Virus record (IMG/VR): IMGVR_UViG_2826849342_000003
Direction: 5' to 3' (one strand)
From: a virus
Lineage: Duplodnaviria; Heunggongvirae; Uroviricota; Caudoviricetes
Length of the DNA: 17,599 nucleotides
This document shows, piece after piece, positions 12,001 to 14,929 of the stretch. Made by a program: the position numbers. Position 1 is the stretch's first letter. Every line of letters starts with the position of its first letter.

Positions 12001-14929
12001 AGTATTCAGTGTTGGGATTTGAAAATCACATGAACGTGTTTCATGAGAACAAACATGGGTTACCCGAGGCGCTGGCCCGTGGCTTGGCCGTGTTCCTGAA
12101 CACTACCGCAGTGGATAAGTATTTCCGTCGCTTCAACGGGCATACACAGGTCAATGCAACCGACCTCAAGATGATTAAGTACCCAAGCCGTGACACTCTG
12201 ATAGAGCTTGGCAAGTGGGCTATGCAACAAGAAACTCTCACGCAAGAACATATTGACGCTAAGCTAGGAGCTCTGACTGCATGAACAACCAAAATGATTA
12301 TATTGAGGCCGCTCAGCAAATTATAGCATCCTTAGGCCTGCCCAGAGCGCAGCAGAATGAGCGTTCTGCTTTGTGTTTGCTGGCACTCCTGAACCTCACG
12401 CCGGGAAAAGCATGGGCCGACGCGGAAAATCCGCTTGTGGGCATTACACCAATCATGAATTGGGTTCGGGAGCACTACGGCAAGGTCTACGCACCCAATA
12501 CTCGTGAGACATTCCGCCGCCAGTCTATGCATCAGTTCTGCGCTGCTGGAGTAGCCCTCTACAATCCGGACAAGCCCGATCGCCCAGTGAACAGCCCGAA
12601 GGCTGTTTATCAGATCGAACCTGCTGCTCTGTCCACGCTACGCACTTTCGGCAGCCCGGCATGGCACGATAGCCTTGCAACCTATTTAGCCGAGCGTGAA
12701 ACGCTGGTTACCCGCTATGCTAAGGAGCGCGAACAGAATCGTATCCCTGTTGAAATTGCTGCGGGCCAGCAAATAACCCTCAGTCCCGGCGAGCACAGCG
12801 AACTTATCCGTGCCATAATAGAGGACTTCGCCCCACGTTTTGCTCCGGGTAGCGTGCTGGTCTATGCTGGCGACACTGGCGAAAAGTGGGGCTACTTCGA
12901 CGCTCCACTGCTGGCCGGGCTAGGTGTTGATGTGGATTCACACGGTAAAATGCCAGATGTGGTGCTACATTTTACTGCGAAAAACTGGCTGCTGCTGGTT
13001 GAGTCTGTCACCAGTCATGGACCGGTTGATGGGAAGCGGCATGCTGAGCTTGCCAGGCTGTTTGCCGGATCAACAGCCGGACTTGTCTATGTGACCGCTT
13101 TTCCAAATCGCTCCATCATGGGACGATATCTTGGTGAAATCGCATGGGAAACAGAGGTATGGGTGGCTGATGCACCTTCTCATCTTATTCACTTCAACGG
13201 AGTGCGATTTCTTGGCCCCGACTCTACTGAATGAGTACAGGACCAGATAAATAGCCCGGCCCATGCGCCGGGTTTTTCTTTGCATATCCCCTCCTGTTAT
13301 CTGTCCCCTTAAAAAATAAATCACTTTAAAAATCAGTTAAGTAATAATTTTTCGCCATAAAAAGCACCGGCGGCATTTACATGAAAATCACCAAAAGTTA
13401 TATTTATTTCAAGCCAGAAACATCGCGCCCTTACACAGGGCTACATAAATCAGTCGTACGGCGCGACTTAACCCGCCGCAAAATGCTCTTTAACAACCTG
13501 GAGCTTTACAGTGTCAATGACCTGTTTAGACCCTTACACGTAAACGTGCTGTATCATCGGGTACGATCCGGTCGATGAGAGAGTATCCCCGCGCGAGAGC
13601 GAGAACGGCGTGAGAACGGGCAACACTGGCAGGAAGTTGGCGCTGACCAATACAGGGAATGTTTTGGGGTGTGGTGAAGGGTTCATGGACGGGAATATGT
13701 CGCACGTAAAGCGGCGAGGCCCGAGGGACTATTGCTGAAGATAAGTAGGCCGAATCGGGTCGAAATGGGTCTCCCACCTGCCACATCGCCAAAGCATTTC
13801 CGAGAAAGGACGGTATTGACTGCGTGTGATGTCGGGGCTATATTGGAAGAACACCTCATAAAACGGGTGTCGGGATTGCTACCCCGCTGACAATCGAGGC
13901 GATACAGACGCGCCAGCGTCTTTTTTTGTATCGACATACACGCACATCTTATCAATGGTGGGCTGTATGGGGCCGACTTCAGTCGGGCTGGTTCCCTTGA
14001 TTGCCAGTTGTAGCAACCCTGTACAGTCCACCGCCAGCGAGCTTGCTACCTCCTGCGGTGGTTACCAATCACCAATCACCAATCACCAATCACCAATCAC
14101 CAATCACCAATCAAGGAGGCTGCCATTATGGCTACTATCCCTGCCCTTTCTCAACCTGAAATCACCATTTCCAATGGCCGCGCTGTTACTACGTCCTTTG
14201 CCGTTGCCGAATATTTTTGCAAGCGACACGATAACGTATTACGTGCCATTGCAAATATTGAATGCTCAGCGAAATTTAACACCCTCAATTTTGAGGACGT
14301 TACCTACACCGACGCCAAAGGCGAACAACGCCCAATGTACCAAATCACCAAAAACGGATTCGTCTTCCTGGTGATGGGATTCACTGGTAAAAAAGCCGCT
14401 GCTTTCAAAGAAGCCTACATCGCTGAGTTCGATCGCATGGAAAAACAACTATGGGAACAAAAACAACTGGCCCTGTCTTCTCCTGCGATGAACATCAACT
14501 ACCCCCCTCGTGGTTCTCAGATAACCATCCCTACGCCACGATGAACTATGTTGATCGCAAGGTTATCAGCCTTGATGCTTCCGTGCTCTTCGATATGCCA
14601 AGCCCAACTATGCGCATCCTCAATGAGCTACACAGCAAAGGCTATAACGTTGACGCCGCTGTCGCCGAATTTAACGCCTTCAAGCATCTGACGGAAGAAA
14701 TGCGCCGTAAATTGCTGGACATTTCCCGCACATCGGAAAAATCTTCCCGCTTTGGTTTCAACGTAAATCTTTAATTAACCCCATCCCCGACCACATATCG
14801 GGGATTAAATTAAATATCTGGATTAATTAACCGGAGGATTTGTCATGCTCAAACCTCACTACGGAACCGCATTAGTTTCTCGCGAGGACGTTAAACCCGG
14901 CACAGCAATTCTTTACAATGAAGTGGTCA

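Follow-up and report, generated by a model that had tools for sequence, protein, structure and literature searches.

An isrK-C4 RNA module upstream of a rha-family gene in a Shigella dysenteriae-type prophage

The isrK cassette and the C4 RNA beside it

The window analyzed here, a stretch of 17,599 nt from a Caudoviricetes record (IMG/VR IMGVR_UViG_2826849342_000003), contains a promoter-hairpin-terminator cassette between a perfect boxA (13484-13496) and a downstream ORF with a Phage_pRha domain, which is the setting between boxA and a rha-like gene that had originally been predicted. The elements of the cassette were found as claimed: TTGACT (13816-13821) is separated by a 17-nt spacer from TATATT (13839-13844), a short hairpin follows the promoter (ACACCU/GGGUGU, 13851-13856 with 13865-13870), and the terminator AGACGC-GCCA-GCGUCU (13906-13921) runs into seven T residues (13921-13927). 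With a start about 7 nt past the -10 element, the predicted small RNA of about 77 nt would span 13851-13927 and measure exactly 77 nt. The cassette makes up only the initial third of a larger module that consists of IsrK, C4 and then the a2 and b2 boxes with a ribosome-binding site; the C4 RNA immediately 3' of the cassette had been overlooked. The main features are as follows.

13816-13844, plus strand: sigma-70-type IsrK promoter TTGACT-17-TATATT, predicted start A13851
13851-13927, plus strand: IsrK-family small RNA of 77 nt (Rfam RF01394, own covariance model, covariation)
13851-13856/13865-13870, plus strand: IsrK hairpin 1
13871-13874/13883-13886, plus strand: IsrK hairpin 2
13906-13911/13916-13921, plus strand: IsrK terminator stem, followed by U7
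13951-14038, plus strand: C4-type antisense RNA, equivalent of Gifsy-1 STnc1160/'orf45' (Rfam RF01695)
14128-14544, plus strand: rha-family gene with Phage_pRha domain (PF09669, E 3e-32; PHROG Rha/anti-repressor families)

The Rfam covariance search that had been proposed as a check returned a full-length isrK match (RF01394) that covers model positions 1-77 of 77 and scores 61.8 bits, above the gathering score of 50, with an E-value of 2.3e-11 computed for the whole window on both strands. The original isrK of Gifsy-1 scores 79.3 bits with the same model, and the window IsrK reaches 85.4 bits with our own covariance model. As in RF01394, the RNA comprises three stem-loops, the last being a Rho-independent terminator that ends in a U-run. 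The second hairpin (CGGG 13871-13874 with CCCG 13883-13886, loop AUUGCUA), which displays one of the recognition boxes described below, had gone unseen in the original prediction. The Rfam isrK model begins 7 nt past the -10 element, and the published Gifsy-1 numbering (A107, C159, C162) fits exactly if the start is set at this distance.

Fourteen related loci were scanned with Rfam, which together with the window locus gives 15. An isrK match followed by a C4 match was found in all 14, among them Gifsy-1, a P1-like phage, SfV, P88, APSE-1 and several Stx phages; in the P1-like phage RCS47, isrK scores 60.2 bits and lies with a C4 match upstream of icd/ant. The module precedes different antirepressor-type genes in unrelated phages. 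Conservation in related prophages, likewise proposed as a check, extends to the promoter spacing and the three-hairpin RNA of the 14 other loci, and all 15 loci keep the -35/-10 pair with 17-nt spacing and equally far upstream of isrK despite diverged sequence. Over 14 distinct sequences, 91% of the cells are paired as compared to 36-48% when the partners are slid, and compensatory changes occur in five pairs, located in hairpin 1 and the terminator; the stem of hairpin 2 is nearly invariant and therefore uninformative for covariation.

The window has a single copy of the exact promoter pattern, and 200 shuffled sequences had none. Generic motif density between 12500 and 15500 is not above chance, neither for promoter-like sites (3 against 3.3 expected) nor for terminator-like sites (5 against 3.0 expected), and the 77-nt RNA on its own folds only slightly better than shuffled sequences (z -1.38). 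It is homology and conservation, not motif counts, that lift the cassette above chance. The claim that no credible ORF lies inside the cassette stands as well, as neither of the overlapping ORFs, 13732-13890 (plus strand) and 13683-13955 (minus strand), has a meaningful Pfam or PHROG match, and isrK homologues range from 75 to 79 nt, with length differences that are not multiples of three. The further ORFs checked, 13879-14031 (minus strand), 13381-13578 (plus strand) and 13526-13792 (minus strand), likewise lack a meaningful Pfam or PHROG match. Judged from these sequence comparisons, the unit is almost certainly a copy of the IsrK family.

The C4 RNA follows on the same strand after a gap of 24 nt and matches RF01695 over its full length (positions 1-87 of 87) with 76.4 bits, the gathering score being 45; in each of the 14 other loci it is located 22-44 nt downstream of isrK. 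Its closing stem is followed by a tRNA-like GCCA (14033-14036), a feature that Hartmann et al. reportedly linked in 1995 to RNase P, which frees C4 from its precursor in the P1/P7 system. A consensus scan found no internal C4 promoter in the 24-nt spacer. The c4-a1b1 covariance model (RF03163), which represents the a1 and b1 targets of C4, belongs to the same Rfam clan as C4 and overlaps the 5' half of isrK in 4 of the 14 comparison loci (L008, L009, L013, L014), has no match in the window even at E <= 1, and no further family was detected between 13300 and 14300 at permissive E-values. ORF 13955-14374 was considered as a coding sequence and rejected, since its weak Phage_ASH match and its PHROG regulator matches lie only over the translated C4 stretch. 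A search for CI-operator-like repeats common to the cI-upstream region (9900-10010), the PL-like region (13280-13430) and the IsrK promoter yielded only weak 11-of-13 matches, none of which overlaps the IsrK promoter.

Recognition boxes and their co-variation

Two short boxes in IsrK and two in the rha leader face the same pair of C4 loops.

13875-13882, plus strand: box b1 AUUGCUAC, loop and 3' arm of IsrK hairpin 2, complementary to C4 b'
13891-13899, plus strand: box a1 CAAUCGAGG, single-stranded IsrK linker, complementary to the C4 a' loop
13992-14003, plus strand: C4 a' loop, with a' CCUUGAUUG
14010-14017, plus strand: C4 b' GUAGCAAC
14042-14049, plus strand: box b2 CUUGCUAC, first C4 target box, rha leader
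14064-14113, plus strand: heptamer repeat ACCAATC, 7.1 copies, between b2 and a2
14108-14119, plus strand: box a2 CAAUCAAGG, second C4 target box, overlapping the rha Shine-Dalgarno sequence AGGAGG (14114-14119)

Box b1 copies b2 and a1 copies a2, such that IsrK holds a second set of C4 targets. In the window, a1 forms eight Watson-Crick pairs and one G-U pair with a', b2 (14042-14049) pairs with b' at 7 of 8 positions, and a2 (14108-14116) pairs with a' at 9 of 9 positions, all Watson-Crick; the predicted a2:a' duplex covers 14107-14124 with a dG of -17.2 kcal/mol. The a2 box ends 6-11 nt 5' of the ATG in all loci. As whole-segment RNAduplex predictions sometimes picked alternative sites, anchored ungapped box comparisons were used across loci. 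In these comparisons, b1 and its cognate b' share seven Watson-Crick pairs out of eight in 15 of 15 loci, which represent seven box types, while non-cognate b pairs average 4.9. The three-way co-variation of b1, b' and b2 was observed in every locus, and a1, a' and a2 also co-vary, with 11 loop types among the 15 loci.

Among 282-nt modules with an identity of otherwise about 98%, 9-10 of the 14-15 differences fall within the 15 b-box positions. These differences are coordinated in 17 of 18 near-identical modules and the remaining module keeps a G-U pair. At least three or four b-box types (GCUAC, CUCAC, AGGAC/AGGGC) exist in near-identical Eru1-type Stx phages. Additionally, in 15 of 15 loci the duplex predicted for b1:b' is more stable than that for b2:b' (-13.8 to -15.5 as compared to -8.6 to -11.6 kcal/mol), as expected of a decoy. 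When mapped in our own numbering of the Gifsy-1 locus, the mutations G28A/C162U and G31A/C159U coincide precisely with b1 and b'. In its lowest-energy fold, the 290-nt read-through leader pairs IsrK nt 22-49 with the 3' half of C4 (z -4.07, equaled by 0 of 200 shuffles), an arrangement that matches the published 'structure A'. Taken as a whole, the cassette very probably belongs to a C4/a1b1/a2b2 module.

A predicted switch on rha translation and competing explanations

The C4 RNA of P1 represses icd/ant (PMC8198154). Experiments in Gifsy-1 showed that IsrK exists as a 77-nt sRNA ending at the terminator and also forms the 5' leader of an antirepressor-like read-through mRNA, and that it activates anrP translation in trans by more than 100-fold, with G28A/C162U and G31A/C159U as compensatory mutants (PMC4825925). 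The original suggestion of a regulatory RNA or an attenuator-like element upstream of the rha-like gene is therefore supported, since the window holds a full-length member of a family whose founder is both.

The locus is probably best explained as a P1 immI-type 'C4' RNA switch on rha translation, in which the cassette RNA would be the first component and IsrK would serve as leader and as decoy or activator. Transcription would proceed from the promoter at 13816-13844 with a start at about 13851. A stop at 13906-13927 (6-bp stem, U7) would yield the 77-nt RNA, and read-through would yield an IsrK-C4-rha transcript. From the latter, C4 would be excised, pair with a2 and b2 and block rha translation, as extrapolated from P1/P7 c4 and Gifsy-1 IsrK. 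IsrK may bind C4 through the same loops, both in cis inside the precursor, as in the predicted lowest-energy fold, and in trans as the free 77-nt RNA. By keeping C4 off the ribosome-binding site or by remodeling the leader, it would allow the Rha/antirepressor-like protein to be translated, and the prophage would thereby be driven towards induction. Pairing combined with termination would make IsrK both a terminated, attenuator-like leader and a decoy or activator sRNA, and rha the putative antirepressor-like output. By analogy to Gifsy-1, action as decoy or activator appears the likelier direction for IsrK in this phage group, at moderate confidence. One Gifsy-1 result fits poorly with simple repressor titration, as constitutive STnc1160, the C4 equivalent, strengthened IsrK toxicity instead of weakening it (PMC4825925).

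This copy sits in a decayed Shigella dysenteriae-type prophage, and the cassette might possibly be an inert leftover in this genome, a reading that is considerably less probable than a working switch in the family and compatible with it. Alignment with the intact 215-aa ArgO145 gene indicated that rha is cut to 138 aa by a 1-nt deletion, with the remainder continuing in another frame to 14774; for this reason, the switch in this copy is probably no longer consequential. Directly after rha, an IS3-family element splits kilR, IS1 copies flank the region, and the closest records are Shigella dysenteriae-type chromosomes. Complete E. coli genomes contained no exact match (best 95.9%), and a comparison by exact protein then pointed to these chromosomes. 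Against complete decay, the N-terminal Phage_pRha domain is still encoded, and eight records share identical, intact copies of the promoter, IsrK, C4 and all boxes, though this identity may only reflect recent common ancestry.

A minor finding that merits attention is the heptamer repeat between the C4 target boxes. CAAUCA, a part of a2, recurs in every unit, and otherwise near-identical records carry 3, 4, 5, 7 or 11 copies. Owing to the expansion, the distance from b2 to a2 exceeds that in E. coli phages by 35 nt, which could weaken two-site C4 binding.

Two further mechanisms draw on the same pairings, and both are improbable to a similar degree. The first is attenuation of the P4 type, in which the cassette would serve chiefly for regulated termination: mature C4, like the P4 CI RNA on seqA and seqC, would pair with a1 and b1 on the nascent leader and enforce or modulate termination at the IsrK terminator, leaving the 77-nt RNA as a by-product of immunity. 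Box a1 does end only 6 nt 5' of the terminator stem, the shared clan of C4 and c4-a1b1 is in line with this idea, and the Gifsy-1 authors raised it themselves when they called P4 SeqA a structural homologue of IsrK (PMC4825925). However, the trans-activation by Gifsy-1 IsrK and the loss of activity in its point mutants indicate that the free RNA is an effector, and constitutive STnc1160 left the IsrK effect unreduced (PMC4825925). The predicted folds also offer no obvious antiterminator alternative for the terminator arms.

The second is the literal Gifsy-1 mechanism. According to the Gifsy-1 authors, activation proceeds via translation of 'orf45', which is coupled to anrP, and start and stop mutants of orf45 lower activation (PMC4825925). 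Transferred to the window, IsrK would open the ribosome-binding site of a small ORF beginning at the C4 AUG (13955), coupling would switch on rha, and C4 would be irrelevant as an antisense repressor. Although the AUG at C4 position 5 is kept in 15 of 15 loci, it lies within a conserved C4 stem (AUGGUGGG), and the ORF shows no conservation as a coding sequence: it measures 14, 15, 37, 39, 45, 64, 110 or 123 aa, is longer, or is fused in frame to the downstream gene. In the window, it comprises 139 aa and runs past the rha start out of frame, so that the coupling step is not transferable as described, and its frame shifts with the heptamer copy number. Moreover, the co-variation includes a2 and b2 at the rha ribosome-binding site, which this mechanism does not need.

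A stand-alone, Hfq-dependent sRNA with host (core-genome) mRNA targets, to which the rha neighborhood would be incidental, is very unlikely. Rfam calls the family 'isrK Hfq binding RNA', and a Rho-independent terminator with a U-tail is typical of Hfq sRNAs, but the variable parts of IsrK follow the neighboring C4 loops and not a fixed host sequence, the module moves as a unit before different antirepressor-type genes, and the IsrK literature examined names no host target. A chance juxtaposition of promoter-like and terminator-like motifs, which the motif counts in the 3-kb neighborhood (no higher than the shuffle level) and the weak fold of the lone RNA would allow, is refuted by homology (Rfam E 2e-11), conservation in at least 15 loci and covariation, and its probability is practically nil.

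A broader generalization of the preferred P1 immI-type switch is doubtful at present: IsrK-type RNAs might be a third player in all C4 modules, P1 included, acting as terminated decoys that titrate C4, with the balance of decoy, antisense and target RNA setting the antirepressor level. If true, b-box types would insulate or cross-wire co-resident prophages, b-box diversity might contribute to the extreme lysogen instability reported for the N-less Eru1-type Stx phages (PMC8044961), and the heptamer array in the S. dysenteriae lineage would be a slippage-driven tuning knob on the switch.

As a discovery, the locus carries little weight, because the IsrK RNA family, its C4 partner and the switch logic are already known from Rfam and from the P1 and Gifsy-1 literature, and Rfam-based annotation already lists isrK and C4 in EHEC EDL933 (PMC5331693). 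GenBank records of Stx/Eru1 phages either show nothing annotated at the module or contain spurious proteins starting inside C4. Correct RNA annotation would remove such false N-terminal extensions of Rha/Ant proteins. As the module lies upstream of an antirepressor-type gene in Stx-converting phages, whose spontaneous induction governs toxin output, its specificity types and repeat variation provide cheap and testable handles on prophage stability.

Comparison with known systems

One of three related systems is the immunity of satellite phage P4, with its CI RNA and seqA, seqB and seqC (as discussed in PMC4825925), compared here by published description. In both cases, a small RNA, processed in P4 and predicted to be so here, derives from the leader of its own operon and is complementary to one upstream and one downstream site; the outcome in P4, however, is premature transcription termination of replication genes and not a translational block of an antirepressor.

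The Gifsy-1 IsrK (RF01394; Hershko-Shalev et al., 2016, PMC4825925) also measures 77 nt and folds into three hairpins; as predicted for the window copy, it has a promoter of its own and an intrinsic terminator that is leaky. In both loci, a C4-shaped RNA (STnc1160/'orf45' in Gifsy-1) and an antirepressor-like gene come next. The central part of the Gifsy-1 IsrK, in which G28 and G31 lie within b1, can pair with the 3' half of the C4-shaped RNA, and this complementarity to the downstream orf45/STnc1160 segment is found in the window as b1:b' and a1:a'. Also shared is the predicted folding of the read-through leader as 'structure A'. The boxes differ, with b GCUAC here and GGCGU in Gifsy-1, and a CAAUCGAGG here and UUCACCGC in Gifsy-1. 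So does the location, which is early-left here, after cI and a restriction-modification pair, and between Q and the lysis genes in Gifsy-1. In contrast to Gifsy-1, the window contains no orf45-like ORF of 45 aa whose stop overlaps the start of the antirepressor gene, the ORF from 13955 having 139 aa, and no adjoining antQ; it carries the heptamer repeat between b2 and a2, and its output gene is truncated.

Compared to the c4/immI region of P1 and P7 (RF01695 C4, RF03163 c4-a1b1; Citron and Schuster, 1990, as cited in PMC8198154), the window shows no icd-like ORF separating the boxes from the regulator, its downstream protein belongs to the Rha family and not to Ant1/2, no C1 operator was identified, the IsrK-C4 spacer measures 24 nt as opposed to 44 nt, and the c4-a1b1 model stays below threshold. 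The overall architecture is nevertheless the same. Repressor RNA and target lie on one strand under one promoter, a predicted one in the window, in the order a1/b1, C4 (a', b'), a2/b2 over the ribosome-binding site, and an antirepressor-type gene, for which rha is the candidate here. The window holds a same-strand upstream C4, complementarity of a'/b' to a2/b2 with one box on the ribosome-binding site, and a second, a1/b1 copy of the targets. The Shine-Dalgarno sequence and the first codons (MAT(I/V)P) are common to rha and icd. Finally, as in P1 versus P7, phages that otherwise resemble each other differ in the few bases that determine specificity.

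The isrK cassette and the adjoining C4 RNA

A promoter, a hairpin and a terminator, from which a small RNA of about 77 nt had been predicted at 13816-13927, were all recovered on reading nucleotides 13500-14300. The middle hairpin, overlooked in the original prediction, brings the number to the three hairpins of the isrK consensus.

Elements of the cassette
13816-13821 and 13839-13844, + strand: promoter, TTGACT, 17-nt spacer, TATATT
13851-13856 with 13865-13870, + strand: IsrK hairpin 1, ACACCU...GGGUGU
13871-13874 with 13883-13886, + strand: IsrK hairpin 2 (middle), CGGG with CCCG
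13906-13921, + strand: IsrK terminator, AGACGC-GCCA-GCGUCU, then seven T (13921-13927)

The exact promoter pattern occurs once in the window and in none of 200 shuffles. In the 3 kb around the cassette, promoter-like and terminator-like motifs were no more numerous than in shuffles, and the isolated 77-mer folds barely better than shuffles (z -1.38); thus, the motifs by themselves prove nothing. The terminator is weak, with a stem of 6 bp.

The Rfam search that had been proposed as a check was run on the entire window with curated thresholds and returned three matches in total. A full-length match to isrK (RF01394; 13851-13926, 61.8 bits vs a gathering score of 50, E 2.3e-11) covers the cassette. 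It is followed, 24 nt past the IsrK terminator, by a full-length C4 antisense RNA (RF01695; 13951-14038, 76.4 bits vs 45), which was absent from the original prediction and carries a tRNA-like GCCA after its closing stem. The third match, also at full length, is the gammaproteobacterial sRNA STnc100 (RF02076; 4167-4372, - strand, 155.9 bits), unrelated to the cassette. The c4-a1b1 covariance model gave no score on the window, a point that sits poorly with the working proposed below.

For comparison, 14 loci were taken from a distant BLAST search that span its range of identities, among them Stx phages of several kinds, SfV, the P2-like P88, the P1-like RCS47 (with ant downstream of the module), Hamiltonella phage APSE-1 and Salmonella Gifsy-1, source of the characterised IsrK (PMC4825925). 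The conservation that had been named as a further check is found throughout: Rfam places isrK and then C4, 22-44 nt apart, in all 14. The Rfam family c4-a1b1, which describes the a1/b1 targets of C4 antisense RNA and belongs to the C4 clan, overlaps the 5' half of isrK in four of the loci; the database thereby already implies that IsrK corresponds to the a1/b1-bearing leader of a C4 module. Upstream of isrK, at a constant distance, all 15 loci (the 14 and the window) have a -35 and a -10 element spaced 17 nt apart, the sequence of which drifts. When the 15 copies were realigned with a covariance model built from these loci, 91% of cells were paired vs 36-48% with the 3' partners slid, and five pairs, located in hairpin 1 and the terminator, had changed on both sides. 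The stem of hairpin 2 is nearly invariant and hence uninformative for or against pairing.

In RCS47 (locus L012, 1500-1578), the P1-type immI leader scores as isrK (60.2 bits) and includes, ahead of c4, a terminator hairpin and U-run, suggesting that P1-like phages may also produce an IsrK-like short RNA. Matches to Rfam sRNA-Xcc1 (RF02221, 76-80 bits) were found downstream of antirepressor-type genes in P13374 (L001, 7088-7171) and a Stx2a phage (L009, 2232-2315).

Recognition boxes in IsrK, C4 and the rha leader

The product of the next gene (14128-14544) contains a Phage_pRha domain (E 3e-32), and its PHROG matches are to Rha and anti-repressor families. When the modules were set beside one another, two boxes emerged in IsrK, with their counterparts in C4 and a second target copy in the rha leader.

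Recognition boxes
13875-13882, + strand: b1, AUUGCUAC, loop of IsrK hairpin 2
13891-13899, + strand: a1, CAAUCGAGG, IsrK linker
within 13992-14003, + strand: a', CCUUGAUUG, loop of the second C4 hairpin
14010-14017, + strand: b', GUAGCAAC, C4
14042-14049, + strand: b2, CUUGCUAC, rha leader
14108-14116, + strand: a2, CAAUCAAGG, rha leader, overlapping the Shine-Dalgarno sequence AGGAGG (14114-14119), 8 nt before the ATG

The 15 loci hold seven distinct b boxes and 11 distinct a loops, and in every locus both target copies match the cognate C4. Cognate b pairs show 7/8 Watson-Crick positions vs a non-cognate mean of 4.9; for the a pairs, the complementary fraction is 0.83-0.87 vs 0.63-0.67. The sharpest covariation test came from 18 IMG/VR modules sharing one a type. 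In these 282-nt modules, about 98% identical elsewhere, 9-10 of 14-15 differences fall within the 15 b-box positions, and the changes are concerted at all three sites (GCUAC, CUCAC, AGGAC); three-way agreement of the b core holds in 17 modules and the 18th retains a G-U pair. Taken together, these comparisons are strong evidence for pairing of the IsrK boxes with C4, and of C4 with the rha ribosome-binding site.

The Shine-Dalgarno sequence, spacer and first codons (14114-14142; GGAGGCUGCCAUUAUGGCUACU..., MAT(I/V)P) are kept across the downstream starts of the 14 loci, and the genes behind them are otherwise unrelated (Rha-type, Ant-type or P1-like icd), so the recombination boundary of the portable module falls within the opening codons of the gene it regulates.

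An ORF at 13955-14374 was considered as a protein and rejected, since its profile matches are confined to the in-silico translation of C4: a weak one to Pfam Phage_ASH, and others to positions ~53-141 of PHROG 995, 821, 6928 and 29966. Annotated coding sequences, P13374 ORF29 (L001, 6169-6954) and SfV orf37 (L004, 1140-1976) among them, begin in or upstream of C4. The absorption of C4 RNA as coding sequence into database proteins and profiles is probably a widespread annotation artefact.

Setting and decay of the prophage

In "Eru1-type" Stx-converting phages, among them TL-2011c, P13374, ArgO145 and PA2, the early-left region shows 95-98% identity to the present one and is ordered cI, BsuBI/PstI-type methylase and endonuclease, ~900 nt of non-coding DNA, rha and kil. 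Eru1-type phages reportedly lack N, cII and cIII, and their lysogens are described as very unstable (PMC8044961). Among complete E. coli genomes the best match to the window reaches 95.9%; an exact look-up of the truncated Rha protein led to CP000034.1, CP026878.1 and other chromosomes that are 99.5-99.9% identical. CP000034 is Shigella dysenteriae Sd197.

In the window, cI (S24 peptidase and HTH) and the BsuBI/PstI-type pair follow one another on one strand (10008-13234), the pair standing where lambda has rexAB. Further along lie a strong bidirectional terminator-like hairpin (13253-13274), a PL-like promoter (TTTACA-17-TATATT, 13376-13404) and, after it, a perfect rrn-type boxA, TGCTCTTTAACAA (13484-13496; chance expectation 0.04). 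An N-like ORF is absent after boxA in the window, and the early-left transcript that enters the IsrK module could undergo rrn-style antitermination independent of N.

The prophage is decayed. Transposase genes of the IS1 and IS3 families interrupt it at 9098-9535, 14927-15766 (- strand) and about 16.3-17.0 kb, an IS3-family element splitting the kilR-like gene just 3' of rha. Compared with the intact 215-aa gene of ArgO145, rha (14128-14774) has lost 1 nt in a C-run at about 14500; the truncated product of 138 aa retains the Phage_pRha domain only and is found identically in many S. dysenteriae-type assemblies. Given this truncation, the present copy may be a relic.

Between b2 and a2 with its Shine-Dalgarno sequence lies a perfect tandem repeat, ACCAATC x 7.1 (14064-14113). 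Near-identical S. dysenteriae-type records, with 248 nt upstream identical, hold three (L038), four (L033), five (L035, L037), seven (L034) or 11 copies (L026, L036), and E. coli Stx phages one perfect and one degenerate copy. The array alters the b2-a2 distance, and each unit repeats CAAUCA, a partial a2 site. Since seven is not a multiple of three, the reading frame of the ORF that opens at the C4 AUG (13955) also depends, relative to rha, on the copy number.

Proposed working and comparison with Gifsy-1 and P1

The module combines a promoter, a 77-nt unit, a weak terminator, C4 and boxes over a ribosome-binding site. In the predicted fold of its 290-nt read-through leader (z -4.07), IsrK nucleotides 22-49 pair in cis with the C4 3' half, a fold likened to structure A, the published Gifsy-1 leader fold, and in 15/15 loci b1:b' is predicted to form a stronger duplex than b2:b'. 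We infer that processed C4 would block the rha ribosome-binding site through a2/b2, and that IsrK, in cis or free, would occupy the C4 loops and permit Rha translation. Annotation treats Rha-family proteins at this position as regulators or antirepressors, so this output would favour induction.

In Gifsy-1, some transcripts from the isrK promoter pass the terminator into orf45-anrP-isrJ; this mRNA is translationally silent, and IsrK in trans lifts anrP translation more than 100-fold (PMC4825925). IsrK G28A and G31A and downstream C162U and C159U are compensatory partners (PMC4825925). Numbered from the Rfam start of the Gifsy-1 locus (L014), G28 and G31 fall in b1 (GGCGU) and C159 and C162 in b' (ACGCC), so that the published helix "b-I" is the b1:b' pairing; A107, of the first orf45 AUG, is C4 position 5. 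STnc1160, the C4 equivalent, was detected as a stable processed RNA (PMC4825925).

A P4-like effect on termination is possible. The Gifsy-1 authors named P4 SeqA/CI as the structural analogue (PMC4825925). IsrK as a pure sponge for a repressor may be too simple a picture, since constitutive STnc1160 enhanced IsrK toxicity and gave no relief (PMC4825925). The Gifsy-1 authors ascribed activation to orf45 translation and coupling (PMC4825925), but the coupling step is not a conserved feature: in the window the ORF that opens at the C4 AUG has 139 aa and crosses the rha start in a different frame, and among the loci this ORF varies between 14 aa and a fusion in frame. The variation agrees with a remark of the Gifsy-1 paper, as relayed in PMC12197685, that the nucleotide sequence is conserved and the peptide is not.

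The element is an isrK member by every testable feature except Gifsy-1-style orf45 coupling, and at the sequence level the whole module fits the definition of a P1 immI-type C4 system, with icd missing. As isrK and C4 copies of EHEC EDL933 had been listed via Rfam (PMC5331693), the element is already known, and the remaining novelty lies in the heptamer repeat and the diversification of box types in Stx phages. In P1, C4 is required for the silence of icd and ant1/2 (PMC8198154). Near-identical 282-nt Eru1/Stx-phage modules (L001, L002, L015-L032) hold at least three b types (GCUAC, CUCAC, AGGAC) and one AGGGC variant that retains a G-U pair. C4 of P1 reportedly pairs with a2/b2 and is processed by RNase P (Citron and Schuster 1990, Biere et al. 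1992, Hartmann et al. 1995), and the specificity difference between P1 and P7 is of a kind that resembles the b-box types of the Eru1/Stx phages.
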